A stretch of 64,000 bases of DNA, taken from contig CAZYTL010000002.1 of the NCBI GenBank assembly GCA_964650355.1, positions 109,465 to 173,464 on the forward strand, in the 5' to 3' direction. The notes beneath the pieces are model-generated. The model saw only the letters and a program-made list of their open reading frames with translations. It ran no database searches and was not told the DNA's origin. This DNA is from an uncultured Gammaproteobacteria bacterium. Lineage in GTDB: Bacteria; Patescibacteriota; Microgenomatia; CAYXHB01; CAZYTL01. Positions 4,578-27,089 of this stretch are shown here, piece by piece. Made by a program: the position numbers and the translations under genes. Numbering within the stretch: position 1 is the first letter of the stretch; each line of letters begins with the position of its first letter.

Positions 4578-5687
4578 TTAATAGGTAGGAATGGCGTTAT
4601 AAACCAAAGTTCCTGTATAAGTATCTGCTGGCTGGTACACGTTAGCTTCAATCGCATAAGTGACGTACACACTGGTTGATCCATTATCAGAGGTGGCACT
4701 GGACATGACCGTGTTGGCAGAAGAATTTACGGGACCGAATAGTTGAGTGCCGGGATTCCAGCCTGACACGTCAGTGTCGGTGGTATTGGCCCCAATCCAA
4801 CCGGTATCGGTATTGGGTGTGGTACCGGTAGGTTCGGTCCACCCGAGGGGAGTTCCCCAGGCAACTCCGCTGGCGGCAAAGGGATCAATATTATTGGCAC
4901 TGTAGGTGCCGGTCATCTGGCTTAACATCTTCATGGTGACGGTATAACCCGAATTGGAGTTAGTAGTCACTGTTAACTTATGGGCCAGATACTTAGGCGT
5001 GGACGCGGTCAAGTTAGAAAACGGCAGGGTACTAAAAGTAGACGTGTCTGAGGTGGTGATGCCGTTGTTGACTGTACTGGTTCCCACCCCAGCTACCACG
5101 AAAGTGAACTGCGGATCTACCCGGGCGCTCACGGTGACGGCGGCCACCACGGTATAAGTGAGAATTCCAGTATCCACACTGGTAGTCCCCAAGTCAGAAT
5201 AAGTGGTTAACCTGACAAAACAGGTATCTGATGAGGTGTCCCCACCTGCCTGACAGTCGTCAATGGCGTGATTGGTAATGGAGGAGAGAGGCACGCCCAA
5301 CACAGTGCTGGCTCCGATTACTTGTCCGGTAGCCGTGTGCTGGAGCTTTAAAATTCCTGAGCCTCCACTGGTAGTATCAAGGGTCCAATTTGCGTCCAGA
5401 TTAGTTAAACTTCCTAAAGACGCGGTGGTCAAGTCAAGACCACTGGGTTTGCTGGCGGAACCGGAAGGAGTGGTTGCGTAAGTAAACCGGATCTCCCTCA
5501 AAGTAGCAGCGCTATTAGTAGTAAAGGTAAAGGTATGGGTACTGGAGGTAGAAGGTCGGGAATCCGACAACGTGTCTTTGCCTCCGGTCAATTGCGCGGC
5601 AAATATTTGAGGAACCAAAACCAGGTTGAGTACTAGCACTAACGTCAATGCGATTAATGAACTAAAAAATTTATGGGCAGTTTTCAT
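4578..5687 (-). CDS. secreted surface protein, paralog B (shared C-terminal domain ...VYNAIPTY)
   Basis: Signal peptide MKTAHKFFSSLIALTLVLVLNLVLVPQIFA; T/S-rich; C-terminal ~190 aa paralogous to 2718..4481 product. Confidence 0.5.
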   Translation of the reverse strand: MKTAHKFFSSLIALTLVLVLNLVLVPQIFAAQLTGGKDTLSDSRPSTSSTHTFTFTTNSAATLREIRFTYATTPSGSASKPSGLDLTTASLGSLTNLDANWTLDTTSGGSGILKLQHTATGQVIGASTVLGVPLSSITNHAIDDCQAGGDTSSDTCFVRLTTYSDLGTTSVDTGILTYTVVAAVTVSARVDPQFTFVVAGVGTSTVNNGITTSDTSTFSTLPFSNLTASTPKYLAHKLTVTTNSNSGYTVTMKMLSQMTGTYSANNIDPFAASGVAWGTPLGWTEPTGTTPNTDTGWIGANTTDTDVSGWNPGTQLFGPVNSSANTVMSSATSDNGSTSVYVTYAIEANVYQPADTYTGTLVYNAIPTY

Positions 5688-7701: not shown

Positions 7702-7959
7702 TTAGAACCCGACTACAATGGTGACGCTGTTTTCCCGCACCCGGATCACACCCCCGTCAATATCAAACTCCTTTACCTGACTCCCCTCACTTACCTGAAC
7801 TTTACCTTTAACTAATTCAGCATACAAAGGAGTGTGCTGGGGCAAAATTGCCAAATCTCCTTGGATGCCGGGAACCAGCACTCTTTGAGGTTGACCTTCG
7901 TATAACGTCTGATCCGGGCTGACGATGACGCAGCTAAAATTGGATTGAGGTTCAACCAT
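7702..7959 (-). CDS. atpC: F-type ATP synthase epsilon subunit (short form, N-terminal beta-sandwich only)
   Basis: Pattern …CVIVSPDQTLYEGQPQRVLVPGIQGDLAILPQHTPLYAELVKGKVQV…GGVIRV…VTIV matches epsilon N-domain (L.VVS.E..F.G.V..V..PG..G.LGILP.H.PL); separated from atpD by one gene. Confidence 0.65.
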   Translation of the reverse strand: MVEPQSNFSCVIVSPDQTLYEGQPQRVLVPGIQGDLAILPQHTPLYAELVKGKVQVSEGSQVKEFDIDGGVIRVRENSVTIVVGF

Positions 7960-8017: not shown

Positions 8018-9688
8018 TTATTCATTGGTAAACTGATGATTTTCGTAGATTTCAAAGTTGGGGCCGAAGCGATCGATAGCAAACAGTTGGGGTAGGGGAT
8101 AGTTCATGTCTAATAAATCAGGGATGCTGGACTTCGGGCTAGGACTGGCGAGCTGTTCACTGATTAAAGGATAATCTGTTTGATTAAGGTTATATTTATG
8201 CCAGAGGGTTTGCCGTTCTTCCGGAGTGAAATAGTCGATGACTATATAGCGATAATTTTGGGCCTGAAAATAACGATCCAAGTCTTGTCGTTGGTTTAAA
8301 TATTCCAGATTATTGGCGCTGGTGACCTGTTTAATATTGGGAAAGTCGGATTGATCCGTAGGAGTTAATGCTTGCAAGTAGGGCTTGAGGGTTTGGTAAT
8401 AATCGGTTTGATAGAGATCGGTTGGTTTTTGAGCCTGCAAGTCAGGTACCAAATAGATGTTATTGCGATTGATTAAAATTGGTTGATCATTAGGAATTTG
8501 ATGTTGGAGATAGTGCTTGGCAAGCACGTAGGTACTGGGCTGGAAAAACAAGTAATTTAACCGGACGTCAAGTATCAATGAATATCCGAGCGTGAGGATG
8601 AGCAGCCAACCTGCTAACCAGAAGGGTTTTTTAAGAAGCAGGTTTACTAAATAAGCAGTTCCAAAGATAAACAGCAATGACAAGGGTTGGGCAGACCGAG
8701 GATTAAGAAAGGCTTTAAATAAATAGACTGCAAATCCGGAAACGGTAAATAGGCTAATTAACCAGAAGAAGGAGGTTTTTCGATATGCCATGATTATCAG
8801 ACCGATGAGGCCAATGATGATGATCGGTCCCTGGTAGGAAAGCAAGACCTGAAGATAAAAGATAATTTGAGACCATAAACTGACCAGATTGACTGGCTGA
8901 CCCGCATAATTATTATGAAGGTGCCACTGAATGATCCCTGGGGTCAGATAAAGCAAACCTAAAATAAAGACGAGATTAATTAAGGCGGTGAGCCAAACCC
9001 GAGGCTGTTTTAACAGGGGAATGAATTTCTGACTGGTAACCACAGCGATGAGCCAAAAGACTCCCAAGGCTAATCCCATGGGAAAGGCGGCCACGGATAA
9101 GCTAAGAAAGGTGATGGATAATAAAAATTTATTAAGTTGGCCGGTGACCCGCCACTCGGTCAGGGACCATAATAAACCCAGGGAGCAAAACAGATAAAGT
9201 GAATTGTATCTACCAAAATGCGCAAATAAGACGCGGAAGAAATCCGTGGTATACAAAAGCGTCAGGATGAGGCCGAATTTTCGGGATTGCAGTCTAAGGC
9301 CCAACCGGTAAATAAACCAGACGGATAAGCCGGAGATGACAGCTGACATGATTCTGGGGATAAACAAAAACATGCCGGGAGAACTCAAGACTAGTGTCCG
9401 ACCGATGTCGTTAACCGAAGGGAAAATGCGGAACAGAAGTAAGAACAAAACGCTGATAGCTAAAAAGGGTAGTTGCAGCCAGGGCCATAAGGGTAGGTAG
9501 GTGGAAAAGTGGCGGAAGTTTTGAGTTTTGAGGATTAAAAGGCTGACTCTTTGGCTTTCAAATTCGTCTCCTACGCTAAAAGCCAGGGGGTGGTCAAAAA
9601 AAGGATTGCCCAAGCCAATGATAATGGCCAAGAGCATGATCCAGACGATGGGTTGGGAGAGGAGCTTACGGGAGGTGCTTTTAAACAT
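8018..9688 (-). CDS. polytopic membrane protein, possible GT-C family glycosyltransferase
   Basis: 556 aa, >10 TM helices then C-terminal soluble domain; 'FDHPLAF' loop reminiscent of HPPL loop of PMT/ArnT; inserted between atpD and atpC. Confidence 0.35.
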   Translation of the reverse strand: MFKSTSRKLLSQPIVWIMLLAIIIGLGNPFFDHPLAFSVGDEFESQRVSLLILKTQNFRHFSTYLPLWPWLQLPFLAISVLFLLLFRIFPSVNDIGRTLVLSSPGMFLFIPRIMSAVISGLSVWFIYRLGLRLQSRKFGLILTLLYTTDFFRVLFAHFGRYNSLYLFCSLGLLWSLTEWRVTGQLNKFLLSITFLSLSVAAFPMGLALGVFWLIAVVTSQKFIPLLKQPRVWLTALINLVFILGLLYLTPGIIQWHLHNNYAGQPVNLVSLWSQIIFYLQVLLSYQGPIIIIGLIGLIIMAYRKTSFFWLISLFTVSGFAVYLFKAFLNPRSAQPLSLLFIFGTAYLVNLLLKKPFWLAGWLLILTLGYSLILDVRLNYLFFQPSTYVLAKHYLQHQIPNDQPILINRNNIYLVPDLQAQKPTDLYQTDYYQTLKPYLQALTPTDQSDFPNIKQVTSANNLEYLNQRQDLDRYFQAQNYRYIVIDYFTPEERQTLWHKYNLNQTDYPLISEQLASPSPKSSIPDLLDMNYPLPQLFAIDRFGPNFEIYENHQFTNE

Positions 9689-9884: not shown

Positions 9885-12259
<2,375 letters not shown>

Positions 12260-12265
12260 AACTGG

Positions 12266-14260
12266 TTATTTTTTATTGACAGTGGGTTTTCTCTTGGGAG
12301 TTTTTGATTTGACGGGTTTTTTTGCCGGGGGGCTGATCTTTTCAGGCGGCTTTTCGGGTGGTTCCTGTTCCGGTTTCTGGTCATCTGACTCTGGTTGGGA
12401 ATTGGATTGGTTTTCAGTCCCTTCCCGATTCTGGTTTTCTTTTTCTTGATGGGTTTCTGTTTGGTGTGTTTGAGGCGGGGTTTGATTTTCAGGTTGGGAA
12501 GTTTTTTCTTCTTTTTGCGGCTGGCCGGTTTGGACAGGCGGATTGTCAGGTGCCGGGGAGGCGGTTGGTAACGAGGTATTTTCTTCATTTGCAGGCTGAT
12601 TTTCCTGGTTAGAGTCAGGTAGTTGCAGATGATCTCTCATTGAGGGGTACTTTTTAAGATACAAGCGCAAACACATTTCCAGATAAGATTCTATTTCCTC
12701 CAATTTCTTGGCGCGTTCATAGAGCTGTTTAAATTCTGTATTGTCAAGTTCACGAAAGAATTGGATAAACTGAGTTTCAAACGAGCCTACTTCGGACAAA
12801 GGCATTTGATCCATGCGTCCGGAAGTGGCGATGGCTAGCAATAAAACTTCTTCCTCCTCAGATAGGTTGAGAGAAGACTCTTGAGCGAATATTTCCCTGA
12901 CTCGTTTACCCCGACTGATTTCCTGGACGGTTTCTTCTGCCACCTCAGTATTCATGGTTTCAAATGACTTTACTTCGTTATAACGGGCCAGTTGCCTGCT
13001 GGCCAACTCACCTACTTTTTTTAATAACTGGGTCTGGACTTTGCCTCCAATTCTGGAAACAGATAAACCTGAATTAACGGCAGGTATGATGCCTTCGTGC
13101 ATCATATTGGCATCTAGATAAATATGGCCGTCGGTGATAGACATTAAGTTGGTAATAATATACTCAGACACGTCACCTGATTGGGTTTCCGCAATGGGTA
13201 AAGCAGTCATGGAGCCACCTCCTAATTTTTTGTCTAATTTGGCGGCTCTTTCCAGGAGTCGGGAATGTAAGAAAAAAATATCACCGGGATAAGCGTCTCT
13301 TCCCGGAGAGCGTTTCATGAGTAGGGATACCTGACGGTAGGCCTTGGCCTGCTTTGACAAATCATCGTAAACAATTAAACAATGTTTTCCTTGGTACATA
13401 AAATGTTCGCACAAAGCTGCTCCCACATAAGGAGCAATGTATTGCAATGAAGGAGAATCATCTGACAGGGCTAACACCACAGTGGTAAACTTCATAGCTT
13501 CCCTTTCTTGCAATAATTGGACGGTAGCTTTGGCCTTGGCAGCCTGAATGCCGATGCCCACATACACACAAATGACTTCTTGGCCTTTTTGGTTACAAAT
13601 GATATCGATGGCGGTTCTGCTTTTGCCGGTTTTTCTATCTCCGATCACTAGCTCTCTTTGTCCCTTGCCGACTGGAACAGTAGTATCGATGGCCATCAAT
13701 CCGGTGTGCAAAGGCTGATAAATATTTTCTCTTGACACGACTGAGGGAGCAGGAAATTCAACATCTCTGGTTTCATCACCCTCAATCGGACCTTTACCGT
13801 CCAAGGGATCGCCCAGGGGGTTGATCACTCTTCCCAATAAAGATTTTCCGGTAGGAATTGACAGTCTTTTGTTGGTGGCGATGGCATGATCATCAACTTT
13901 AATTTTGCTATAGTCCCCCAAGACTACTGTTTCTACTGAGTCCTCCTCCACTCCTAAAACCAAGGCCTGTTCTGATCCGGAGCTGGTTTTAACTTTAATC
14001 ACGTCTTCCACTCGGACATTATCAATGCCACTGATTTTACAAACACCGTCGCCAATATAGGAAACTTTTCCGATCTGGGAAACTTTTTCTTTAAGATCTT
14101 CTTCTGGAAAAGTGTAGTTGATTAATTCTTTAAAGGACTGATCTGCTGCCAGTTCAGCTTGTTCCTTTACCCCAGCACTGGGTAATTGAATGCCATGCAG
14201 ATCTACTTTAAAGAGATCTGGTTTTGAATCTCGGTTTAAAAATTTAGTCAGATCGTTCAT
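12266..14260 (-). CDS. atpA: F-type ATP synthase alpha subunit with ~40-aa N-terminal extension and ~130-aa P/Q/E/K-rich C-terminal tail
   Basis: Walker A GDRKTGKS; long collinear match to F1 alpha (…LIVYDDLSKQAKAYRQVSLLMKRSPGRDAYPGDIFFLHSRLLERAAKL…); low-complexity tail ends KKPVKSKTPKRKPTVNKK. Confidence 0.95.
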   Translation of the reverse strand: MNDLTKFLNRDSKPDLFKVDLHGIQLPSAGVKEQAELAADQSFKELINYTFPEEDLKEKVSQIGKVSYIGDGVCKISGIDNVRVEDVIKVKTSSGSEQALVLGVEEDSVETVVLGDYSKIKVDDHAIATNKRLSIPTGKSLLGRVINPLGDPLDGKGPIEGDETRDVEFPAPSVVSRENIYQPLHTGLMAIDTTVPVGKGQRELVIGDRKTGKSRTAIDIICNQKGQEVICVYVGIGIQAAKAKATVQLLQEREAMKFTTVVLALSDDSPSLQYIAPYVGAALCEHFMYQGKHCLIVYDDLSKQAKAYRQVSLLMKRSPGRDAYPGDIFFLHSRLLERAAKLDKKLGGGSMTALPIAETQSGDVSEYIITNLMSITDGHIYLDANMMHEGIIPAVNSGLSVSRIGGKVQTQLLKKVGELASRQLARYNEVKSFETMNTEVAEETVQEISRGKRVREIFAQESSLNLSEEEEVLLLAIATSGRMDQMPLSEVGSFETQFIQFFRELDNTEFKQLYERAKKLEEIESYLEMCLRLYLKKYPSMRDHLQLPDSNQENQPANEENTSLPTASPAPDNPPVQTGQPQKEEKTSQPENQTPPQTHQTETHQEKENQNREGTENQSNSQPESDDQKPEQEPPEKPPEKISPPAKKPVKSKTPKRKPTVNKK

Positions 14261-14310: not shown

Positions 14311-14889
14311 CTATTCCACTTCTACCAGTTTAGAAGTCTTGGTTAAACTGGCAATCCACTGCCTTTGAAATTGTTGGAATTTAGACCGCAGAGAGTGATC
14401 AAAGACTAAATTTTCTATTCTCACTAACGCTCCGCCTAAAATGGCGGGTTTGACTTCAACGCTGATAACTACATGACGGTTTAATAACTGCCCAAACTGT
14501 TGGGCAAAATCGCGGACTTCTGACGTTTGTAAGTCAAGAGCCACAGCCATAAAGACAATGCCTATTTTTTCTATCTGTTGCTGAAAGTTTTGCACAAATT
14601 CATCAAAGTAATCAAAATTCTCCGAACTGAATAGCCAAAATTGGTGATCGGCAAATAAGTCAGAAAAGAAATTGTATAATTCTGGCTGGGATACGTCTTT
14701 CAAAAGAAGGAGCAGTTGGGTTTTCTTTTGGCCAGCAGTCAGGGTTTCATCATCCACGATTTGATGGGCATGCATTTTAAAGCCGCGATTACTGGCCAAA
14801 CTTTCTAAGATGGTGGAAACCTGAGATAAGGTTTGGGTGTCATATATCTGTCTGATCAGTGATAGCGATAAACTTTCTATGCCGTTCAT
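14311..14889 (-). CDS. atpH: F-type ATP synthase delta (OSCP) subunit
   Basis: Operon position; C-terminal OSCP-like motif ILGGALVRIENLVFDHSLRSKF. Confidence 0.7.
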   Translation of the reverse strand: MNGIESLSLSLIRQIYDTQTLSQVSTILESLASNRGFKMHAHQIVDDETLTAGQKKTQLLLLLKDVSQPELYNFFSDLFADHQFWLFSSENFDYFDEFVQNFQQQIEKIGIVFMAVALDLQTSEVRDFAQQFGQLLNRHVVISVEVKPAILGGALVRIENLVFDHSLRSKFQQFQRQWIASLTKTSKLVEVE

Positions 14890-15427: not shown

Positions 15428-17467
15428 TTATCTAATGATCAGCAAGGCTGCTGCAACCGCTAAACCGGCAGCTAATACAAATGCTAATAAACTTCCGTAT
15501 AAATTTAATTGTAACCTGGTCTTAGCAAAAGGGTTCCTGCCAATGGCTTCCAGGCCCCGGCTGGCCATCATGCCTCCTCCGATGCTGGCACCCAGAATGC
15601 CAAAACCCGCTGCCAATCCGGCGCCGATATAGCGGATAACCGCGTACTTGTTTAGACCTTCGCCCTTTAATAACTCCTGAAGTTTTTCTGTGACCTGGCC
15701 TTTAACCTCACCTATTCCCCCACCTCCGCCTGGGGGGATCTCATCTTTATCCGGGGAACCTTGGACTTCAAATACATTACTCACGCCGATCATCCCGTCA
15801 CCTGCCACTGTAATGGTGACCTCTTTATGCGCGAGGGAAATTATGGCTTGAAGATGCCAAATTCCATCTGCAGAAGCACTGGCCACCGGCGGATCAATAG
15901 TGCCGGTGGTGTCGGTAATGGCTAAAGGTCCGTCGTAATCAGTAATGAATTCGTTTAATGAATTTTTGGCGCCGATGGAGACCACAAAGGGAACACCTAC
16001 CTGTTGAGGGCTGGGAATCTCGTCGATCACTAGCCTGCGATTCAAGCCGGTGCCCACACTGCCCACTACTTTGGCAAACTTGGTGATGGTTCCTTGGGTG
16101 GCGGTAACCGTTAAAGTGCCAATGCCTGATTCAGAGGCGGTCAATAACACAGTGTTACCAACAGCATTGCTCAGCGTTCCTAAATTACCTTCGATATCAA
16201 AGGAGTAATTTACCCCGGTAACCAGATTACCATAAGCATCTACCCCTTCTGCCAAAATAGGAATGGTGGCCCCGGCTAAGGCGGAGATGATATCAGGATC
16301 AACATTTACTGACGACAACACCCCTGGTATCGGGGTAGGGGTGATGGTGGGAGTGGGAGTAATAGTGGGCACTGTGCTGGGAGTGGGAGTAGCAGTAGTT
16401 GTGGGTGTGGGCGACGGAGCCTGAGTGGGCGTAGGAGTGCCCGCACCCCCCCCGCCTGTCCCGGTACTGGCCTCAACCACAGACACGCTAGCAGTGCTGC
16501 CAACTATTCCGGAAGTAGCTTTGACGGTATTTAAGAAGTTACCTACAGTGGTGCCGGCGGTAAATAATCCGGTAGAATCTATGGTACCTCCGCCGTTTTC
16601 CACTGTCCAGGTGACTGAAGATAAGGTTTTTTGATTGTTGTAGAGATCGTAGCCGGTGGCCGTAAAGGGAATAAAACTACTGGTGGGTACGACTGCCAAA
16701 CTGGGACTGATGATGATGTAGGTTAAAATTCCTGGGGTGGCAGTTTCGTAAAAAGGTACGGCATTGCTGATGCCGCTGGCCAAAGTACCGGTGACAATGT
16801 AAGTGCCACTTTTATTGCCTAAAGTAAGGGCGGTGCTCACGTAGCCGCTACTGTTAGAATTTCCGGATAAACTACTCAAAAGTTGTCCGGAAGCTCCGAT
16901 CGGATAACTGGTGATGGCCCAGTTAACACCCACGTTGGCAAGAGGATTGTTAAAAGGATCCAGAACCCGCAGCTGTAAATTTACCGGCAAGAGATTGGTG
17001 ACGATTCCGGACTGATTATTGCCGGCAGTAATAGTGAGAAATTTAATCCGGGAATCAGCTGACACGGTGAAAGTCGAGGACTGACCGTTGATACTGCCGG
17101 TGGTAGCGGTGATCTTTGTGGAGCTAGAAGCCTGAGTGATATAGACATTGCCGGTCCATACTCCGGCGGAAAAACTTCCGGTCGCAGTGGGACTGAGGGT
17201 GGCCGTATCATCAGTCAAAGTCACGGTACCTGAATAACTAGTTAATTTCTGGCCGTTTTCATCAAGGGCGGTAATGGTAATTTGGAAAGGTACTCCGGCT
17301 AATTTGGTACCGCCGTTAGTATCATCGACCACTGAAAAAGAGGTTAAGGTTTGGGCGATAACCGGATGAACACCCCAATTCAAAAACACCATGCCCAACA
17401 ACACAACCACTGCCAGCCAGCCCCCCAAACGGCTGAGGGGATTTAAGAGACCTTTTTTTGCTATCAT
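15428..17467 (-). CDS. secreted Ig-like (Big_2-type) repeat protein with Pro/Thr linker, fused in-frame to a C-terminal ATP synthase c-subunit-like two-helix hairpin (atpE position)
   Basis: Signal-peptide-like N-terminus; Ig-like repeats; PT-rich linker; last 74 aa (…YIGAGLAAGFGILGASIGGG…GRNP…LYGSLLAFVLAAGLAVAAALLIIR) align to c-subunit helix1-RQP loop-helix2 but helix 2 has no Asp/Glu; possible internal start (AGGTGA-N5-ATG at 15793) would yield a 121-aa c-like protein. Confidence 0.6.
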   Translation of the reverse strand: MIAKKGLLNPLSRLGGWLAVVVLLGMVFLNWGVHPVIAQTLTSFSVVDDTNGGTKLAGVPFQITITALDENGQKLTSYSGTVTLTDDTATLSPTATGSFSAGVWTGNVYITQASSSTKITATTGSINGQSSTFTVSADSRIKFLTITAGNNQSGIVTNLLPVNLQLRVLDPFNNPLANVGVNWAITSYPIGASGQLLSSLSGNSNSSGYVSTALTLGNKSGTYIVTGTLASGISNAVPFYETATPGILTYIIISPSLAVVPTSSFIPFTATGYDLYNNQKTLSSVTWTVENGGGTIDSTGLFTAGTTVGNFLNTVKATSGIVGSTASVSVVEASTGTGGGGAGTPTPTQAPSPTPTTTATPTPSTVPTITPTPTITPTPIPGVLSSVNVDPDIISALAGATIPILAEGVDAYGNLVTGVNYSFDIEGNLGTLSNAVGNTVLLTASESGIGTLTVTATQGTITKFAKVVGSVGTGLNRRLVIDEIPSPQQVGVPFVVSIGAKNSLNEFITDYDGPLAITDTTGTIDPPVASASADGIWHLQAIISLAHKEVTITVAGDGMIGVSNVFEVQGSPDKDEIPPGGGGGIGEVKGQVTEKLQELLKGEGLNKYAVIRYIGAGLAAGFGILGASIGGGMMASRGLEAIGRNPFAKTRLQLNLYGSLLAFVLAAGLAVAAALLIIR

Positions 17468-17512: not shown

Positions 17513-18082
17513 ATGAAACAGGAGAAAATCAAGGCAATTATCGATCAATTTGTAACTGATCGCCAAACTATCGACAAAGAAAAACTCAGGCAATATGTTT
17601 TCCAGTCATTAAGTGATTGTCATACCGAAGCTGACTATCTGATCAATAATCCTGAAAATAAAAATCATCTACATCAAATAAATGATCTGTTGGCCCAACA
17701 CCAGCAACCGGAGATTCGTCAATTAGGACTCACAGCCATGGAGAGAATCAACCAACTGCATAAAGAAGTTGAGAGCTGGATTAACGATAACGTTGATTCT
17801 CCGGAAAGATTTGAATTCTCGATTCAAGCTAAAGCCACTGAAATAAGTTCCGGCAACCAGGATTATGATTATTGGGCTGCCTTGACTATTCGGCACGATC
17901 AACTTTTGGCTGCGGTAGTGATCTTCGAAGAAGCGTTGGCAAAGCTGTCCAGCTTGATTCATACGGAGCCAGCAGAAGCGGTTAACTCTCCGGATCTAAA
18001 ATATTTTGCCGAGCACACCAGCCCGGAACGAATTTTTAAGGCAGCGGAGGAGATTTACCAACTCAGGAACCAATTTCATTGA
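17513..18082 (+). CDS. hypothetical cytoplasmic protein
   Basis: 189-aa ORF divergent from ATP synthase operon; no motif recognised. Confidence 0.4.
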   Translation: MKQEKIKAIIDQFVTDRQTIDKEKLRQYVFQSLSDCHTEADYLINNPENKNHLHQINDLLAQHQQPEIRQLGLTAMERINQLHKEVESWINDNVDSPERFEFSIQAKATEISSGNQDYDYWAALTIRHDQLLAAVVIFEEALAKLSSLIHTEPAEAVNSPDLKYFAEHTSPERIFKAAEEIYQLRNQFH

Positions 18083-18857: not shown

Positions 18858-20270
18858 ATGAAATTGAAACTTTTTTCCGGAAAACAAATTGTTTATATCT
18901 GGCTCGGCTTTGCAGGGGTGGTGTTGATGCTCCACTTTATTTTAAGACAAATCCGTTACCAGGTTTTTTTTGATATGGACAATTATTGGCCGGTGAGTAT
19001 TTTTTTACCTAAAATCCCTGCTCCCCAAGATGCAGTGATCTTGTTGGGGATAATTCTATTATGGTGGGCATTTTTAAGATACTGGGATTCGGCGCATAAG
19101 TCTATTTGGAAAATCACGTTTCTTATAGGAGCTTTAATAGTTGCCACTACAGCACTTCAGGGAATTAAACAAGGGTTCGTATTTCCCATCACGGGGACAG
19201 GACCGGGATCGATTACCTACTATGTTGATATTCAAGGGATCACCGACCCTGTTAAATTATTAACCAGTTATACCACGATTCAATCGACTTTGCGCGCTCA
19301 CAGCCGAGTCCATCCTCCTGGGGCAATGCTGTTTTCCTATTTACTGGACAAAATTTGGCATGAGCCGATTTTTACCTCAGTGGCTCAAGCTTTGATTGGC
19401 TTGCTAAGCATTCCTTTGCTCTATGGGGTGCTGAGAAAACGTGATGATTCCCAGTGGGCTTTTTTGGGGGCTACGATTTTAGGATTGTTGCCTGCCACCC
19501 AAATTTATTATCTTTCCAGCTTAGATGCGGTGGTGGTTGTAATTTTCTTAATGATTGTTTATCTGGGCTATCAAAAGTTAAATCAGAAGTCTGCTAAACT
19601 TCAGTGGCAATGGCTGATGATCACGGCTGTGATTTTATGGCTGGCTGCGTTCATCTCGTTTGCCGTGCTGGTGTTAATTTCGGTGATACTTTTCATTGAC
19701 TGGCAAAAAAATCAGCGCCTGACCTGGAGTCTTCCTCTGTTGGGCATCACGGTGGCGATTTTTTTTGTAGTTTACAATTTTACAGGGTTTAATTATTTAA
19801 ACAGTCTGGCTATCGCCACCAAATATGAAGGTCCTCCGCAGTTTTATTTGTTGGCTGAGCCTTTGTCTTACGTGGCGACCCGAATAGAAGATTGTCTCGA
19901 GATTCTGGTGTTTTTTACTCCCTGGTTAGCATATCTACTAGTGAGGCAGTTTAAACAGCAAATTCATAAATATAAGCAGGTGTTACTGCCTCGACCGTCC
20001 GTCAATAATTTCAAAAAGTTAGTAAGACAACAGCCAATAATTAATATCGGTTTGGTGGTAGTAGGGGCTCTAATTTTGTTTTTCTTAGCCGGCGCTTACT
20101 ATACCGGCGAAACTGCCAGGGCAGCTAACTTTATTTACCCCTTTCTGATTATGCTGGTTATTCCGATTATAGAGCGAGCTAAACCAGGCGTGCGCGAGCA
20201 AAAGTTGCTCCTGAGTTTGATTTTTCTGCAGACCGTGGTCATGCAAACGTTTGGGTGGTTCGTATGGTAA
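18858..20270 (+). CDS. polytopic membrane protein, GT-C-like (HPPG loop)
   Basis: 470 aa, ~10 TM helices; loop motif RVHPPGAMLF resembles HPPL/HPPG loop of GT39/GT83/DUF2723 enzymes. Confidence 0.4.
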   Translation: MKLKLFSGKQIVYIWLGFAGVVLMLHFILRQIRYQVFFDMDNYWPVSIFLPKIPAPQDAVILLGIILLWWAFLRYWDSAHKSIWKITFLIGALIVATTALQGIKQGFVFPITGTGPGSITYYVDIQGITDPVKLLTSYTTIQSTLRAHSRVHPPGAMLFSYLLDKIWHEPIFTSVAQALIGLLSIPLLYGVLRKRDDSQWAFLGATILGLLPATQIYYLSSLDAVVVVIFLMIVYLGYQKLNQKSAKLQWQWLMITAVILWLAAFISFAVLVLISVILFIDWQKNQRLTWSLPLLGITVAIFFVVYNFTGFNYLNSLAIATKYEGPPQFYLLAEPLSYVATRIEDCLEILVFFTPWLAYLLVRQFKQQIHKYKQVLLPRPSVNNFKKLVRQQPIINIGLVVVGALILFFLAGAYYTGETARAANFIYPFLIMLVIPIIERAKPGVREQKLLLSLIFLQTVVMQTFGWFVW

Positions 20271-20274
20271 CTAG

Positions 20275-22545
20275 CTATTGTAAGGGTGGGGCTTCATCCA
20301 GGGCTTCCAACTGGGTTAAGGCAATGGGATTATCTTTATCGATAAGTAAAACGTGCTGATATTCTCTTTTGGCCAGAGAAGGAAAATCATGGTCATAGTA
20401 CTCTTGAGCCAAGAGGATTCTGGCCTGCACGCTATTCGGTTCTACTAAAGTGGCCAGGAAAATTTTTTCGAAATGACACTGTTGGTTGCCTTGTTGTCCG
20501 CAAACCACTGCTTGTTGAATTAACTGTGCTGCGCTCAAACAGGGTTGTTTTTCCAAGTAGCGGCTATTACCCGGATAATTAGGCAACTGCTTTAATTGAT
20601 TAGTAATGATTCGGTTATTAGGTACTAACAAATCAGCAGCCAAGAGCTCTTTCCTGGCCAACTCTTTTTCCCCCATGCGCGCATAAATGGTGCCATTGTT
20701 AGCCCGATGTTGGGTAAGGGTGGCTAAAAAGGCCATTTGATATAAATTTCGCTGGTCGACTTGGTTAAAGTTTAATTTGTGCCAGTCAGTTTCCTCAGGG
20801 TTGGTCTGGGAAATTTCCGGGGCGGCACAATCTACCTGATTGACATAACCAATGCCGGGATAGAGATAAAAAGCTTGGCCATCCATACCTAACAAATTAA
20901 GGTAAAAAGGAATGATATCAGCCACATAAACTGGTTTGTGTAGACTTACCTGCCAGGAGATGACATCAGCGATCCGGTAAGGGTTGTCTTCATAGTGGAA
21001 CCGGGAAATGGTTTGTTGATCCTGGCCGTGCAAGGTCTGAATTTGCGGAGTGCTGGTGACAATCTTAACGTCTTTTCTGGTTTGGTAAATTGACTGGCTG
21101 GCCAACAAGGAGAAGCAAGACAGATCTGAAAAACAAACTAAGGTGGTCTGCTGAGGCAGGTCAGACAAGACTGTTTGGGCTACTTGGTACGGAGCCTGAT
21201 AATGGCTCAAATTGACTCCCTGATAGTTTTGCCATCCTGAAATGAGGGGCAAAATTAACACGATTAGAGACCAGTAGGGGGAACGCTTAAAGCTAAAAAC
21301 TTTGTTCCTGACAATCAACTCAAACAGACTGGCTAATCCTACACTCAAAAAGATGCCGTAAATAACATAACCCAATAAGTACATTCTCTCGGTGGTGGCC
21401 AGCAACAGATAATATTCGGCCGGTGAAGACCCTCCGGCCGGGATGATCAGATAGGCCGCTAACAACGGTCCGGTCAGTAAAAATAAAGAAAAGAGGCTAA
21501 AGCCGAGGCGCCAGCGAGTTTTAAGAGCGATCACCAATCCCCCGATGGCAATTAAACCCATACCCCACCAGCCAAAGTGGCGAGGTACAGTGGTGCCCAA
21601 GTAGTAAGTCAGAGACCGCCAACTTTCAGGCAAGGAGATGGACTTCCAATAGGCATTAATCACTCGGCCTTCTTCAATGATCACTCCTGAAAAGTCTGAC
21701 CTGGAGATCATATTGACGATGCCTGGCCAACTGCGATCGAACTGCCAGGAAAAAGGATCGTTGGGTGATTGGATGATAAATAATAGTCCGTAACTTAATG
21801 AAAAAGTGATGACTAAGATAAAGACGCTGGCGGCTAGCGTGGCTACCAGGCTCAGCCACTTAAGTTTGCCTTGAGCAGTAAAAAAACGGCCGATTCTGGT
21901 GTCGATCAGCAAGATCAACACGCTGAGAATGAGCAGGACGCTGATCTGTTGATGGGCTAAAGCCAGTCCTAAGGTGAGGCCGAGGAGAAGTAACCAGCTT
22001 TTGACTCTGGCTTTCGCGGCTTTGTCTATTTGCTCTTTTTTCAGATCGTAAGCCTGATAGATTAAGATGGATAAATATATAATTAATAAACTCAAAAAAT
22101 TATTTAAAGGAAAAACTTCGAGCACGTTGGCGTATAACCAAAACAAAAACGACAGACCCAGCAACAAACTACCGCTGGCAAAAAGAATTAATTTGTCCGG
22201 AGAGGTAATTTTTTTCTTCTCAATTAGTTCTCCTACGGCTACCGAAATTAAAAAAACCAGACCTACGCTGAGAGCTTGGAACAAAGCTGCTAATAAATGG
22301 GCCCGAAAAGCAATTCCTCCGGGAATGGGCAAGTGAGTAACAAAGTATACCAAGAAGGTTTGCAAAGGATATCCTGGAGGATGGGGAACGGCCAAATTAT
22401 AACCGGTGGCGATCAGTTCGTCAGAATCGCCATAAGCTACGGGAGTCCGGGCTGCGGTAGTGATGTAAATACCCAAGCAGAGTAACACCAAGCCAACAAA
22501 AAACTTTTTTTTCATAAAGGGCGATGGGCCGTATTTGACTATCAA
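20275..22545 (-). CDS. DUF2723/TMEM260-like GT-C membrane glycosyltransferase-like protein with C-terminal TPR (tandem paralog 1 of 5)
   Basis: N-terminal motif YGDSDELIATGYNLAVPHPPGYPLQ; >10 TM; conserved CFSDLSCFSLL motif; C-terminal TPR-like helices. Confidence 0.6.
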   Translation of the reverse strand: MIVKYGPSPFMKKKFFVGLVLLCLGIYITTAARTPVAYGDSDELIATGYNLAVPHPPGYPLQTFLVYFVTHLPIPGGIAFRAHLLAALFQALSVGLVFLISVAVGELIEKKKITSPDKLILFASGSLLLGLSFLFWLYANVLEVFPLNNFLSLLIIYLSILIYQAYDLKKEQIDKAAKARVKSWLLLLGLTLGLALAHQQISVLLILSVLILLIDTRIGRFFTAQGKLKWLSLVATLAASVFILVITFSLSYGLLFIIQSPNDPFSWQFDRSWPGIVNMISRSDFSGVIIEEGRVINAYWKSISLPESWRSLTYYLGTTVPRHFGWWGMGLIAIGGLVIALKTRWRLGFSLFSLFLLTGPLLAAYLIIPAGGSSPAEYYLLLATTERMYLLGYVIYGIFLSVGLASLFELIVRNKVFSFKRSPYWSLIVLILPLISGWQNYQGVNLSHYQAPYQVAQTVLSDLPQQTTLVCFSDLSCFSLLASQSIYQTRKDVKIVTSTPQIQTLHGQDQQTISRFHYEDNPYRIADVISWQVSLHKPVYVADIIPFYLNLLGMDGQAFYLYPGIGYVNQVDCAAPEISQTNPEETDWHKLNFNQVDQRNLYQMAFLATLTQHRANNGTIYARMGEKELARKELLAADLLVPNNRIITNQLKQLPNYPGNSRYLEKQPCLSAAQLIQQAVVCGQQGNQQCHFEKIFLATLVEPNSVQARILLAQEYYDHDFPSLAKREYQHVLLIDKDNPIALTQLEALDEAPPLQ

Positions 22546-22632
22546 ATGCTATTGTCAATGGTTAGGTGGTAAATGTCAAATGATTGACGAGTACTTTAAT
22601 TTATTAAAGAGATAATTATGTTCATGAACTGA

Positions 22633-24846
22633 TTAATTAAAATTCAATTTTGATTTGGCGGTCTGATTTTCCGGATCCAGATGCAAAATGTTTTGGTATT
22701 CTACTTTAGCCATGACATGATCGTTGATTTTCTCGTATATCTCGGCCAAGAGAAGGCGGAGGCGGATAGACTCGGGGTGACGGAAAGTCCCGGCCAGGGC
22801 GCCGATAAAAGCGGGTTTGAGATCGTTGGCTTGGAGATAATGATTAACTGCCTCGGCGATGGCATCCGGACCGGCGGTGGACGCAAGGGAAAGTTGGCCA
22901 TAAGGATGCAAGGGTGGAAGTTGATCAACTGAGGGTAGGTGTTGATAAGCATCTGGAAGTTGACTGGTCAGGCTCTGGGCTTGGTCCAGATCTGTCTGAG
23001 CCATCTGGGGATGATCAAGCTGGCGATAGGTTCGAGCGTTAAAAGTATGGATATAAGCAAGTGAGGCTTTGAATTGCAAGCGCATGGGGTCTTGAGGAGG
23101 AAAAATCTGACGCGAGACGGCCTGGGAAAGTTGATAGTCAGGAACGGGCAGTGGCGAGGGTGGGGTAGTAACCAGCTCGCCAAAATATCCATGAGGAATG
23201 TAGTAGAAAAATCCGTAATCCAGCCCCAGATAGTCATAATATCTACCATGAAGATCGATGATAAAGGTACGACGGTGATCTAAGTCCCAAGTAGCGTAGT
23301 CAAGTAGAAGGAAAGGATTGAAAGGATAATCAAATCCGTGGAGTTCAGGATGGTGGTTTAATTGGGAAAGGACCAATGGGTAGGCTGAAGGAATCAGAGT
23401 AATATCGGGACGGGTTTGAGTGACGAATTGATCGTATAACAAAGCAAAACAACTGATATCGCTCAGACAAATTAACCGGGAGTTTTCAGGTAATTGATTT
23501 AAGACGGTGTGGTAATAGTTATGGATGAGATCAAAGGATTGCAAATTGGCCCGCGGATAAATTTGGCTGCTTCTCCAGATAATAGCGACAGTGACGATTA
23601 ACAAGCAGAGATTGATGATCAAAGTTTGGGGAAAATGTTTTTTTATCACAGACAGAAAGGTAAATAAGCCGAGGGCGATAATTAAAGGAGTCAAAGTGTA
23701 ACCGAAGAGAAATAGTCTGATTAACATGGCCTGGCTGGCCAAATCAGGCGGCCAGTCAAGGTAAAGAGGAATACCAGCAAAAGCAGGGACCGTTAAAAGT
23801 AGACTCATCCAAACCAAGTGATGCTTAATCCAAAGAAAGGAGAAAAGTCCTAAGACGATTAACAAGCTAGTAGTTAATCCAAAATCCGACCAGACCTGAT
23901 GAGCGTACACGGGAATTTGGTTAAGGATTTTTTCTAAAGAGATGTTCATGATGAACAGCGGCCGAGGTTTACCAGTAGCCACGATTTCGCTGGCCACTTG
24001 TTTTCTGGTCAGCTGATCAATCAATCCTGAAAAGCTGGGCGTAAATCTCCAGCTCACAGGCGCGGAAGTGGAGTTTAAAGCCAACATCAGGCCAAGAGAG
24101 ATCAGGACTGAAAAAATGAAACCAGCAATGAGAACCCGAATCTGAAGAATAGAAATGGAGGTGCGGGTACGCCAGAGCAAGTAGCTAATGGCCGGGAGGA
24201 GCAGCAGGAAAGTGTAATGATACATGATTCCCAAGCCGGTGGTGATTCCCAGTAAGAGCCAGAGTTTTATTGATGATGATGAGGTTCGGATCAGCTTAAG
24301 GATGATTAATGCTGTGCAAGCTACCAGGAAATCGTGCAAGGGATATTTTTCTGCGATGTGGCTATAGAGCCAGAAGTGAAAGGAAACGCCCAAACTGGCA
24401 GTGCCGATGATGCCAAAGATCAGTGGATCCAATTTAGGGGAAAACACCGGAGTAAGTTTTTTCAGGGCGAGCAACCCGCCAATTAGCTCATTAATAGCCA
24501 GAAATAACACGGAAAGGGTCAAACCATGAAGCAGACTACTGAGTAAATGAGCGCGAAAAGCCACGGTACCGGGAAGAGGAAGATGGGTGGCGGTATAGAG
24601 CAAAAGGCTATAAAGAGCATACCCGGGCGGGTGAGCCAGACCCAAATGGTAGCCAACAGTGATCAGTAAGTCAGAATCAGCGTAGGAAACATTGGTGCGG
24701 GGAGCAGTAAGAGTATAGAGCAGGAAGAAGGTGATAAAAATAATCACTGCGATAGAGGGTACAGGATTTGATTTCAAAAAGGTTAAAAGAGATTTAGTAA
24801 TAACACGGTGAGGGTTACCGGTCGATTGATGTTTGGTCATGGTCAA
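22633..24846 (-). CDS. DUF2723/TMEM260-like GT-C membrane protein with C-terminal TPR (paralog 2 of 5)
   Basis: YADSDLLITVGYHLGLAHPPGYALY; LICLSDISCFALLYDQ; TPR-like C-terminus. Confidence 0.6.
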   Translation of the reverse strand: MTMTKHQSTGNPHRVITKSLLTFLKSNPVPSIAVIIFITFFLLYTLTAPRTNVSYADSDLLITVGYHLGLAHPPGYALYSLLLYTATHLPLPGTVAFRAHLLSSLLHGLTLSVLFLAINELIGGLLALKKLTPVFSPKLDPLIFGIIGTASLGVSFHFWLYSHIAEKYPLHDFLVACTALIILKLIRTSSSSIKLWLLLGITTGLGIMYHYTFLLLLPAISYLLWRTRTSISILQIRVLIAGFIFSVLISLGLMLALNSTSAPVSWRFTPSFSGLIDQLTRKQVASEIVATGKPRPLFIMNISLEKILNQIPVYAHQVWSDFGLTTSLLIVLGLFSFLWIKHHLVWMSLLLTVPAFAGIPLYLDWPPDLASQAMLIRLFLFGYTLTPLIIALGLFTFLSVIKKHFPQTLIINLCLLIVTVAIIWRSSQIYPRANLQSFDLIHNYYHTVLNQLPENSRLICLSDISCFALLYDQFVTQTRPDITLIPSAYPLVLSQLNHHPELHGFDYPFNPFLLLDYATWDLDHRRTFIIDLHGRYYDYLGLDYGFFYYIPHGYFGELVTTPPSPLPVPDYQLSQAVSRQIFPPQDPMRLQFKASLAYIHTFNARTYRQLDHPQMAQTDLDQAQSLTSQLPDAYQHLPSVDQLPPLHPYGQLSLASTAGPDAIAEAVNHYLQANDLKPAFIGALAGTFRHPESIRLRLLLAEIYEKINDHVMAKVEYQNILHLDPENQTAKSKLNFN

Positions 24847-24950
24847 GAGGAATGTTGTCTTGATTAAATTTCACTGGTATCCAAAATTGTCATTGTCTGG
24901 AACCGATGGTTAATTTGGGTAAGAATAACGAAATTTGATTTTTCACCACT

Positions 24951-27077
24951 TTAATTAATTAAAGTGGTTATTTTGGCTAACACCTGTTGTTCCTCCGTGG
25001 CTTTGGCTTCTTGATGAGTTTGGATGTAAATCTCTATCAACTTTTTCCTGGCGGAAATAAGATGGGGATCTTTTAACACGGCTCTTTGGTATGCCCAAAC
25101 AGCTCCCTGAAGATCACTGTTCCTTTCCGCCCGGCTACCCTGGTCAAACCATTGCTGAGCAGTCAGAGGCGCTTGTTGGTTATATTCTGATAATTGGCCG
25201 GAATTGATATAAGCCAGGGTTTTAGTGATCTCTTGTTGATTATGAGGCAGGCGCACCAATTGAGAGGCAATTTGAATATGTGCAAAAGCCCCTTCCGGGC
25301 TACCAAGCCGACCATAATAGTAAGCCAGGGTGGTATGGATTTTGGCCAAATTTCCTAACCAACCCAAATCCCAATCATCAAACTTCTGGTGCTCGGCAAT
25401 ATTGGCTAACTGGGCGGTGAGTCCGTAATCATAATCTTTAATCTGTCCGGCAGGAGTAAGATTCACTTCAATGGTATAGCCATAAGGCCTGGCATAAAAA
25501 GGATTAGCTTCCAAACCCAAGACTTCCAGTCCGGATGTATCAGGATCGAATAAATAGACCTGGCGGTGTTGAGACAAATTCCAGGACACTAAATGGGCTA
25601 GCTGATCCTCTCTTGAACCATAGTATTGACTGTATCCCAATAATTCCTGACCCTGGTGCTGAAAATATGGCCAGCGCATCTGTACAGTTAGAGGAACAAT
25701 CTTAAGATCGGTTCTGAAAGAATTAACTAACTGTTCATAGAGCAGGCCAAAAACCGAGTCGGAATCAACAATCAACACCGCGTTTTCGGGTAAGCTCTGC
25801 AAAATATTTCTAGAAAAATAGTAAGTAAAATTATTATGTTTAAAATTTACCGACCGATAATTGATAAAGATGGGCAAACCTACCAGTAATAAAATGGTGA
25901 CAATTCTCAAGTACTGTTTAATTTTATGGAGTTTTAATTTGGCGAAATAATCAAATAACTCCCCTACGCCGACCACTACGGGGATAGCGAATAGAAATTT
26001 ACTCATTAACAACATTCTTTCTCTCAAGGCCCAGCCCCAATAATAACCCTGATCACTGTTATTGAGGGTTTGGGGGAATTTCATAAACATAGCCAGGCCG
26101 ACGCCGGACACCAGCCAGCTGATTAACCACAGCCAGCCAAAAGCGCGGTGTTTTTTATAGAGATACCTGACGCCTAAAATTGCCAATCCGATGCCGATAA
26201 ATAAATATTCTTTGGTTAAGAGAAGAAGATATTGCCAGACGGCCAATAAAGATCTGAAGGGTTCCCAGCGGTAGGCGTCTAATTCCACGGCTGACCCGGC
26301 TGCGGTGTAAATGCGACGACTGATCATGTCAATTAATCCTGAGAAACTGGGGTCAAAATACCAGGAAAATTGAGCCTGATGCCCATAATAAATCCATAGC
26401 AGGCTATAAGGCAGCACAAAGCCTAACAAACTTATGCTGGCAAACATTAATCTCAGCCTCTGACTGTTAATGCGGTAAATTAACCAAAGCCAAAAAGGCA
26501 AGAGTAATAAAAAGATTTGGTGGTGGGACGCTCCTAAACCAAAAACAGCTCCGGTGGCTGCCAACCAGACTCGATGGTGACTAAGATTCGTCTGATGAGT
26601 CAATTTGATAAATAACCAGATAAACCAAATAGCTAGCAAGTGGCTGAAAGGGAAAACTTCGGCAACGTTGGCGTGGAACCAAAAACTATAAGTAAAACCC
26701 ACAAACAAAGTGCCGCTGACTAAAGCCCAAAATTTTCCTTTACGAGTGGTTAGTAGTTGGGAGGCCACGCTATACAAACCCACCAAGCTTAAACTTTGGA
26801 ATAAGGCTGAGGACAAATTTGTTTTAAAAGCGATGCTAGCGCTAAGGGGCAACCGCATAAATCCCTGTAATAACAAGGTGTATAGGGGATATCCTGGCGG
26901 ATGAGCAATTCCTCCGGTGTAGGCAGCCGTGACTAACTCATCAGAATCAGCATAGTTAAGGTGAAGTCTGGCTGCGGTTTGTGAGTAAACTAAAAACGAT
27001 AATCCAAAAACTACTAAAACACCTGACAACCAGGCGTGTTTTTTAAAGAAACGAGTAATCAACTGAAGTCTAACCAT
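24951..27077 (-). CDS. DUF2723/TMEM260-like GT-C membrane protein with C-terminal TPR (paralog 3 of 5)
   Basis: YADSDELVTAAYTGGIAHPPGYPLY; polytopic; TPR-like C-terminus. Confidence 0.6.
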   Translation of the reverse strand: MVRLQLITRFFKKHAWLSGVLVVFGLSFLVYSQTAARLHLNYADSDELVTAAYTGGIAHPPGYPLYTLLLQGFMRLPLSASIAFKTNLSSALFQSLSLVGLYSVASQLLTTRKGKFWALVSGTLFVGFTYSFWFHANVAEVFPFSHLLAIWFIWLFIKLTHQTNLSHHRVWLAATGAVFGLGASHHQIFLLLLPFWLWLIYRINSQRLRLMFASISLLGFVLPYSLLWIYYGHQAQFSWYFDPSFSGLIDMISRRIYTAAGSAVELDAYRWEPFRSLLAVWQYLLLLTKEYLFIGIGLAILGVRYLYKKHRAFGWLWLISWLVSGVGLAMFMKFPQTLNNSDQGYYWGWALRERMLLMSKFLFAIPVVVGVGELFDYFAKLKLHKIKQYLRIVTILLLVGLPIFINYRSVNFKHNNFTYYFSRNILQSLPENAVLIVDSDSVFGLLYEQLVNSFRTDLKIVPLTVQMRWPYFQHQGQELLGYSQYYGSREDQLAHLVSWNLSQHRQVYLFDPDTSGLEVLGLEANPFYARPYGYTIEVNLTPAGQIKDYDYGLTAQLANIAEHQKFDDWDLGWLGNLAKIHTTLAYYYGRLGSPEGAFAHIQIASQLVRLPHNQQEITKTLAYINSGQLSEYNQQAPLTAQQWFDQGSRAERNSDLQGAVWAYQRAVLKDPHLISARKKLIEIYIQTHQEAKATEEQQVLAKITTLIN

Positions 27078-27089
27078 GACAGACCCATT

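Follow-up and report, generated by a model that had tools for sequence, protein, structure and literature searches.

A carboxylate-less c-subunit hairpin fused to a predicted exported Ig-like protein in an F-type ATPase operon of Patescibacteria

What does an F-type ATPase do when its c subunit has lost the residue that binds ions and gained what looks like a surface protein? This question is raised by a 64,000-nucleotide stretch of contig CAZYTL010000002.1 (positions 109,465 to 173,464; hereafter the window), whose lineage assignment is Patescibacteriota. At the atpE position lies a single open reading frame (ORF) of 679 amino acids (aa) with an ATG start, at 15428-17467 on the minus strand, directly upstream of the genes for subunits b, delta, alpha, gamma and beta. 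An earlier annotation of this DNA made from its letters alone (the sequence-only reading) had described the same single ORF at this position and proposed that it joins a c-like hairpin without the essential carboxylate to a secreted immunoglobulin (Ig)-like protein. Homology searches, alignment to solved c subunits, family conservation and operon context all led us to the same description. The system is seemingly undescribed and widespread in Patescibacteria, and we think that its ATPase probably acts at the cell surface rather than moving protons.

The C-terminal hairpin and the ectodomain fused to it

The sequence-only reading had suggested aligning the C-terminal module of the protein to PF00137 (ATP-synt_C). 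Residues 614-666 match this family with E 3.9e-6 and 27.5 bits, above its gathering cut-off of 24 bits. A profile of the module also aligned without gaps to solved F-type c subunits, among them 9itj_H (E 1.4e-9) and that of Bacillus PS3 (1wu0, E 2.5e-8). In these alignments, as in one of the module with PS3 and E. coli c made with hmmalign, the ion-binding carboxylate (Glu56 in PS3, Asp61 in E. coli) falls on V664, encoded at 15476-15478.

We compared 73 sequences, namely the window's protein and 72 homologues. The carboxylate column holds Ile in 37 of them, Val in 23, Leu in 12 and Met in one, and Asp and Glu are absent from residues 648-679 in 73/73. A correctly placed acidic residue had been named as something that might have been misread; V664 occupies that place. 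The sequence-only reading had seen in neither helix the Asp or Glu required for ion binding. Helix 1 does have an acidic residue, E640, in a conserved LEAIGRNP segment beside the cytoplasmic loop and away from the ion site. The strongest conservation of the whole protein lies at the end of helix 1 and in the cytoplasmic R-N-P loop. G643-R644-N645-P646-x-A648 is invariant among the 73 sequences, and the helix-1 glycines at positions 615, 617, 621, 623, 626 and 630-632 are about 88-100% conserved.

By its sequence, the C-terminal module is a subunit c, but two features that define this family functionally are missing, the carboxylate and the pairing with subunit a. The module passes the PF00137 threshold, is predicted to form a two-helix hairpin with a Gly-rich helix 1 and an R-(Q/N)-P loop, and its gene shares an operon with those for b, delta, alpha, gamma, beta and epsilon. 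What it lacks is the helix-2 Asp or Glu that binds H+ or Na+ and an adjacent upstream subunit a (PF00119). Like canonical c (AtpE; PS3 1wu0/6n2y and the 'GRNPEA' c of 9itj), it is a hairpin of ~70 aa with a GxGxGxG helix 1 and an R-(N/Q)-P loop, is the product of the first membrane gene before b, delta, alpha, gamma, beta and epsilon, and gives a significant sequence match. In contrast to canonical c, the fusion hairpins carry V, I, L or M in place of the carboxylate (PS3 E56 / E. coli D61) and F, Y or L rather than E or D after the loop Pro, and no subunit a is encoded next to them; the window's hairpin is preceded by a signal peptide and by 570 aa of N-terminal extension predicted to be exported. 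Hairpins without a carboxylate can still form rotor rings, as in c1 of Acetobacterium woodii (PDB 4bem) and the double-hairpin c/K subunits of V/A-type enzymes. However, those rings always keep carboxylate-bearing hairpins together with subunit a (or I), pump ions and have no exported ectodomain, whereas the fusion operon encodes no carboxylate-bearing hairpin at all.

An AlphaFold2 model of the 679-aa protein, built on 60 homologues, reached a mean predicted local distance difference test (pLDDT) score of 84.9. It contains five beta-sandwich domains, most of them with pLDDT >90, and places the hairpin helices at residues 607-644 and 646-678. Every c protomer of this kind is thus predicted to carry an exported ectodomain of ~570 aa made of five Ig-like domains and a Pro/Thr linker. 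Hydropathy and the model together predict a signal peptide, exported Ig-like domains, a first transmembrane (TM) helix running out-to-in, a basic loop and a second TM helix running in-to-out. This predicted topology agrees with the way bacterial c is known to be oriented, N-out and loop-in, and with the earlier argument that an N-terminal extracellular fusion is topologically allowed. The signal-peptide prediction combines hydropathy, AlphaFold2 and the family consensus.

The element order given by the sequence-only reading (signal peptide, Ig-like repeats, linker, 74-aa module) stands in outline, but the Pro/Thr linker was misplaced: it lies between Ig-like domains 3 and 4, and a Gly-rich linker and a short helix precede the module. 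The repeats had also been called Big_2, and the match is instead to Big_1 / Invasin_D3. A Foldseek search with the ectodomain model returned only generic multi-Ig arrays (the surface-layer (S-layer) proteins EA1, Sap, SbsB and SbsC; invasin; titin; complement MG domains) and gave no functional clue.

Frame continuity had been singled out as a point to check. A word-indexed search yielded >70 full-length homologues from independent assemblies, 613-690 aa long and 50-65% identical to the window's protein, whose exact sequence is absent from the protein collection. A few of them are titled 'ATP synthase F0 subunit C [Candidatus Beckwithbacteria bacterium]' or 'hypothetical protein'. Conservation in the family spans the full length, at 0.5-0.7 identity in the Ig-like domains and on both sides of the linker, which shows that the frame read through the linker's G-run is real. 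Since the carboxylate position is I, V, L or M in all 73 sequences and the fusion itself is conserved, the fusion is not the product of a frameshift.

Subunit a and the distribution of the fusion

We assembled 38 fusion loci, nine from contig look-ups of homologues and 29 from a scan of species-representative genomes. That scan gave 38 loci (L011-L048), nine of which have a canonical c; together with one from a contig look-up (L008) these nine make up our 10 canonical loci. All 10 canonical loci encode a c of 75-90 aa that has the Glu and a GRNP[ED]A loop, with subunit a immediately upstream. All 38 fusion loci have the hairpin at the extreme C-terminus, a hydrophobic residue at the Glu site and a GRNP[FYL]A loop. 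The fusion ORFs in these loci are usually 616-2653 aa; the shorter ones are cut by a contig end, frameshifted or of a 275-aa type. The usual gene order is fusion, b, delta, alpha, gamma, beta, epsilon, and in two loci gamma, beta and epsilon lie upstream instead.

A hidden Markov model built from the subunit-a sequences of the canonical loci, which it scores at 1e-88 to 1e-124, found no subunit a in the 38 fusion loci and the window (best E 0.22); 27 of the fusion loci have at least 1 kb of sequence upstream, and the flanks searched total 472 kb. Nothing similar to subunit a or to a second c occurs in the 64-kb window. The idea of a proton-dead or repurposed c ring, put forward in the sequence-only reading, is strengthened by this pattern, in which subunit a is missing from every fusion locus examined and present beside every canonical c. 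We also considered whether subunit a might be hidden among the neighboring genes and dropped the idea: the upstream 253-aa and 189-aa ORFs, the 556-aa membrane ORF and a 375-aa ORF of locus L002 show no subunit-a similarity.

Searched exhaustively with a profile, 1.84 billion representative proteins yielded 630 matches at E <1e-3, and we classified the best 150. A single carboxylate-less hairpin was present in 48, a single small c with Glu or Asp in 37 and several hairpins in 51, while 14 were truncated and received no call. Among these best 150, the carboxylate-less hairpins end almost always 0-2 residues from the C-terminus of proteins of up to 2672 aa and carry a GRNP[FYLM]A loop. Several of the carboxylate-less fusions that we examined lie in or near clusters of b, delta and F1 genes. 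The multi-hairpin class is a separate observation: the 51 proteins are single polypeptides of 2-5 tandem c hairpins (P0125, P0141, P0142, P0147, P0150 and others), in which Glu is typically retained at the ion site of the first hairpin and replaced by Gln, Ser or Thr in the rest.

The ectodomains on the carboxylate-less hairpin are varied. They include Ig-like arrays, NHL-type propellers in proteins of ~2,600 aa (P0137) and a subfamily of 257-290 aa (P0194, P0203, P0213, P0219, P0224, P0225, P0238, P0242; locus L010) with a signal peptide and an ectodomain of ~170 aa. The hairpin of this subfamily keeps 'EAIGRNPLA' and has a degenerate helix 1 in which the Gly zipper is lost; one member, P0213, sits in the atpE slot ahead of b-like, OSCP and alpha genes. 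At the other extreme are conserved giant clusters (L007, L003, L032-L035, L041, L045) in which a c-fusion of 991-2653 aa is followed by a second large protein (Kelch/fn3, ~2,400 aa), an ABC ATPase, a MacB/FtsX permease and then b and delta. These clusters are whole or partial depending on the available flank, and the F1 genes come next where the flank reaches that far, as in L041. In L003 one gene encodes the NHL protein and another the Ig-like c-fusion, a hint that domains have been shuffled on a common anchor. Record titles of fusion loci name Beckwithbacteria, Microgenomates, CPR3, Saccharibacteria/Saccharimonadales and 'Patescibacteria group'.

A putative ATPase working on surface ectodomains

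The predicted F1 and b/delta stator are complete and look catalytically competent. In 13/13 fusion-type operons checked, the catalytic motifs of beta are intact, including (I/M)DNIFRF and YVPADD. We interpret the SVSR arginine of the window's alpha as the arginine finger, the counterpart of bovine alphaR373 / E. coli alphaR376. Identity between fusion-type and canonical betas is 50-54%, whereas the beta of a canonical patescibacterial locus (L039) is 69% identical to that of Bacillus. In place of the SAVGYQPT of canonical betas, the fusion-type betas have S(E/D)TGYQ in common, and they cluster together in a neighbor-joining tree, including the beta of the giant locus L041. These features suggest that the fusion-type enzyme is a distinct, faster-evolving lineage. 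We had considered the short epsilon as a sign of an enzyme capable of hydrolysis only and dropped it, canonical patescibacterial operons having an equally short epsilon (81-93 aa).

We read these operons as encoding an a-less F-type ATPase that has abandoned ion translocation and in which ATP hydrolysis applies force to the surface ectodomains, and we give this reading roughly even odds (about 0.5). With the translocation of H+ or Na+ apparently lost, neither making ATP from a gradient nor building a gradient would be possible by the known mechanism. In canonical enzymes the R-N-P loop contacts gamma and epsilon, and since this loop and the Gly zipper are strongly conserved, ring formation and docking to gamma and epsilon are likely retained. 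These two points would leave ATP hydrolysis as the only plausible input and mechanical work on the ectodomains as the only plausible output. F1 would assemble on a ring of fusion protomers, the complex would work as an ATP hydrolase only, and the rotor of gamma, epsilon and ring would pass torque or rotation to the surface-exposed ectodomains. The ring may apply torsion rather than spin continuously. Such a complex would be an actuator working mechanically at the surface of an episymbiotic bacterium, in adhesion, host contact or movement, and neither a proton pump nor an ATP synthase. Published work on related organisms is relevant here. A relative in the same order has neither a membrane ATP synthase nor any gradient-forming enzymes (PMC7143001), and the canonical ATP synthase of a cultivated Saccharibacterium is dispensable (PMC10633639). 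For these organisms, making ATP by ion coupling is evidently not a central process.

The closest analogue that we found is the group of F1-like X0 ATPases of Mycoplasma. Their Type 2 is the G1-ATPase, the gliding motor of M. mobile, and their Type 3 ('F1-like X0') is needed for the MIB-MIP antibody-cleavage system (PMC12994834, PMC11864180). A Walker-A mutation in the beta of the Type 3 ATPase abolishes its surface function. As in the fusion operons, Types 2 and 3 have no recognizable subunit a or ion-binding c, and their ATP hydrolysis serves a cell-surface function in a reduced, host-dependent bacterium, which is what we propose for the fusion system. There are also differences. The Mycoplasma clusters occur alongside a canonical F1Fo, are without b and delta and contain a 12-TM protein and a small cytoplasmic protein. 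The fusion operons, in contrast, keep a true b (E 1.9e-10 to PS3 b) and OSCP/delta, and their two-TM module is still recognizable as a subunit c. They contain no conserved 12-TM gene, although TMEM260-like multi-TM genes lie nearby in some loci only, and in 19 loci the fusion gene has as its divergent neighbor a conserved cytoplasmic protein of 189 aa, whose fold matches nothing known. The likeness to MMCAP2_0577/MMOB1650 is one of architecture, going by the published description (PMC12994834). With b and delta kept and no 12-TM subunit, the fusion system is an analogue rather than a member of that group, and it may work similarly.

Several considerations weigh against a force-generating ATPase. 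Without subunit a, the b stalk would have no evident anchor against the ring, which makes the transmission of useful torque hard to explain mechanically, and it is difficult to imagine how a ring with 8-15 copies of a 60-280 kDa ectodomain could turn inside the envelope. The search for subunit a and a canonical c covered only the 64-kb window and flanks of up to 10 kb. Finally, the neighbor-joining grouping of the fusion-type betas could be due in part to long-branch attraction, and a tree on long branches is weak evidence.

Other explanations of the fusion have to be set beside a force-generating ATPase. The hairpin might be kept only to form a stable membrane ring that displays an Ig-like surface protein (S-layer-like or an adhesin), with F1 binding vestigial or regulatory and no work done on the ectodomain. 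Such a static ring would suit the similarity of the ectodomain to S-layer and adhesin Ig arrays, the free swapping of ectodomains on the same anchor, the P0073 contigs that have no atp genes within ~3 kb after the fusion gene, and the missing stator anchor (subunit a). However, conservation of the protein peaks in the cytoplasmic R-N-P loop, the site of gamma/epsilon contact in canonical enzymes, and even deeply diverged loci keep the fusion in tight operon linkage with b, delta and a complete, catalytically intact F1. Seven co-conserved ATPase genes would be superfluous for a mere anchor, and we consider this explanation unlikely. A conventional ion-coupled F1Fo seems to us less likely still. 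Its subunit a, and perhaps a normal c, would be encoded elsewhere in the genome, with the fusion as a minor, non-conducting member of a mixed ring, or else ions would bind in an unrecognized way. Our view takes in ~64 kb of a roughly 1-Mb genome and flanks of at most 10 kb elsewhere, and 4bem c1/c2 is among the PDB matches of the hairpin profile; mixed rings with partly inactive c are known, the carboxylate-poor c1 of Acetobacterium woodii being an example. Against this, subunit a was found in 0/38 fusion loci and adjacent to c in 10/10 canonical loci, no second c-like ORF occurs in the window, where the fusion gene itself fills the atpE slot, the fusion-type beta is strongly diverged from the canonical one, and a relative in the same order does without a membrane ATP synthase or the means of making an ion gradient (PMC7143001).

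The protein might also be a precursor, with cleavage at the flexible Gly-rich linker just before the hairpin, or an internal start at the conserved M559, giving a free carboxylate-less c and a secreted Ig-like protein. The sequence-only reading had raised the second route: an AGGTGA five nucleotides ahead of the ATG at 15793 would allow a c-like protein of 121 aa. The spacing is in fact four nucleotides, and the internal start is not supported. M559 lies inside a conserved A-G-D-G-M-(V/I)-G-V-S-N stretch, in a confidently modeled beta-strand of Ig-like domain 5, so that the Shine-Dalgarno-like AGGTGA is accounted for as the Gly-Asp codons of this motif. The 558 residues upstream are conserved as protein, we looked for a promoter-like site before this ATG and found none, and the short database entries that begin at M559 look like calls on cut-off contigs. 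A c released by either route, including one begun at M559, would still lack the carboxylate and be proton-dead. In many lineages the hairpin is fused to unrelated ectodomains, always at the extreme C-terminus, which argues for selection of the covalent link and makes a precursor improbable. The least credible explanation, one that we regard as close to negligible, is an assembly or sequencing artefact or a decaying pseudogene fusion. It could appeal to the G-run at 16447-16455 in the linker-coding region and to a broken copy in a related genome (Patescibacteria UBA1449, L038 8815-10129), where the fusion gene is split into ORFs of 407 aa and 53 aa by a frameshift or a sequencing error. A frameshift or assembly artefact is ruled out by the same uninterrupted architecture in >70 independent assemblies, conserved on both sides of the linker, and the 38 loci come from species-representative genomes and metagenome contigs alike.

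If the force-generating ATPase is real, it bears on how F-type enzymes are understood. F-type rotary ATPases are defined by the coupling of ATP to ions at the interface of subunit a and the c ring, which seems to have been deleted in this lineage with motor, stator and ring retained. An 'ATP synthase present' annotation in many genomes of the candidate phyla radiation (CPR) would then mislead on energy metabolism, and transmission of hydrolysis to the ectodomains would be a new route to mechanical work on the surface or on a host for ultra-small episymbiotic bacteria. The two-TM 'X0' proteins of the Mycoplasma gliding and MIB-MIP ATPases could also find their explanation here, with the fusion system as the evolutionary intermediate that has been missing. 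More speculatively, and with more doubt than confidence on our part, there may be a widespread patescibacterial nanomachine in which F1 with b/delta drives a non-conducting c ring whose protomers are surface appendages, from Ig-like stalks to NHL giants of ~2,600 aa. This would be an ATP-powered rotary or torsional adhesin actuator for host attachment, pulling or motility, either independent of the Mycoplasma gliding and MIB-MIP ATPases or sharing ancestry with them. Our literature search, which left most subscription journals outside its coverage, turned up no report of a fused c subunit or of an F-ATPase without subunit a in CPR bacteria.

The operon and its neighborhood

The operon runs on the minus strand in the order c-fusion, b, delta, alpha, gamma, beta, epsilon and spans 7.7-17.5 kb of the window (Table 1).

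Table 1. Positions of the fusion gene, its parts and the neighboring operon genes in the window
Feature	Position	Strand	Basis
Whole fusion gene: predicted exported Ig-like ectodomain and C-terminal subunit-c hairpin	15428..17467 (including stop)	-	ORF list; Pfam Big_1 and ATP-synt_C; >70 full-length homologues; AlphaFold2 mean pLDDT 84.9
Predicted signal peptide, aa 1-38: K/R-rich start, hydrophobic core, end ...VIA|QT	17354..17467	-	Hydropathy segment 10-38; AlphaFold2 helix 10-31; family consensus V-x-A-Q
Ig-like beta-sandwich domains 1-3 (aa 42-136, 142-244, 250-331)	16475..17344	-	AlphaFold2 pLDDT about 95-97; Pfam Big_1 at 162-236; Foldseek
Disordered Pro/Thr-rich linker, aa 337-379	16331..16459	-	pLDDT <50; lowest conservation in family; sequence read directly
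Ig-like domains 4-5 (aa 386-472, 477-569), including M559 at 15791-15793	15761..16312	-	AlphaFold2; nearly invariant motif AGDGM(V/I)GVSN(I/V)FEV
Flexible Gly-rich linker and short extracytoplasmic helix, aa 575-605	15653..15745	-	pLDDT <50 for 581-597; helix 590-602
Subunit-c-like hairpin, aa 606-679: Gly-zipper helix 1, loop R644-N645-P646 (15530-15538), helix 2 with V664 (15476-15478)	15431..15652	-	PF00137; PDB c profile; column counts; hmmalign
Subunit b (peripheral stalk), 176-aa coiled-coil protein: one N-terminal TM helix and a long helix	14893..15423; likely true start ATG 15411	-	Profile of 16 orthologues against PS3 b, E 1.9e-10, nearly full length
Subunit delta (OSCP)	14311..14889	-	PF00213 E 1.1e-15
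Subunit alpha, 664 aa	12266..14260	-	Pfam; PDB alpha E 5.7e-141; P-loop GDRKTGKS and 'SVSR' arginine kept
Subunit gamma	11306..12259	-	PF00231 E 2.7e-40, full length
Subunit beta, all catalytic motifs	9885..11303	-	PDB beta E 1.3e-159; YVPADD present
Membrane ORF, 556 aa, without Pfam match, between beta and epsilon	8018-9688	-	
Subunit epsilon, 85 aa, N-terminal beta-sandwich only	7702..7959	-	PF02823 E 4.4e-19
All-alpha cytoplasmic protein, 189 aa, divergent, 45 bp from fusion gene	17513..18082	+	AlphaFold2 pLDDT 92; same place and orientation in 18 other loci

The AlphaFold2 model of the divergent 189-aa neighbor has no significant fold match in the PDB, and the protein belongs to no Pfam family. 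It is a possible accessory gene of the system. The window's alpha is unusual in several respects. At 664 aa it is longer than the 535-618 aa of related loci, with an N-terminal extension (14100-14260) and a C-terminal tail of ~130 aa that is of low complexity and rich in Pro, Lys, Glu and Gln (12266-12670). The Arg of its 'GIRPAIN' non-catalytic-site motif is replaced by Ile.

Just upstream of the operon lie five tandem paralogues of TMEM260-like protein O-mannosyltransferases (PMTs; PF11028, E 1e-25 to 1e-29), at 20275-31510 on the minus strand. Further GT-C-like membrane proteins are encoded around and inside the operon, at 5853-7700 (+), 8018-9688 (-) and 18858-20270 (+), and 10 related loci have TMEM260-like or GT-C-like genes no more than 10 kb from the fusion gene. 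By analogy with human TMEM260, which adds mannose to Ig-like IPT domains, and with actinobacterial PMTs, which do so on Pro/Thr linkers, the fusion ectodomain may be O-glycosylated.

Three other features of the window were observed. Its cumulative GC skew rises monotonically over all 64 kb (G > C on the plus strand), matching a published observation that strand asymmetry runs in one direction in Beckwithbacteria and Collierbacteria (PMC7143001). Two adjacent secreted proteins, of 587 aa (2718-4481, minus strand) and 369 aa (4578-5687, minus strand), have in common a conserved C-terminal region of ~190 aa that ends in ...YQPADxYxGxLVYNxxPTY. An ORF of 2230 aa lies at 52052-58744 on the plus strand.

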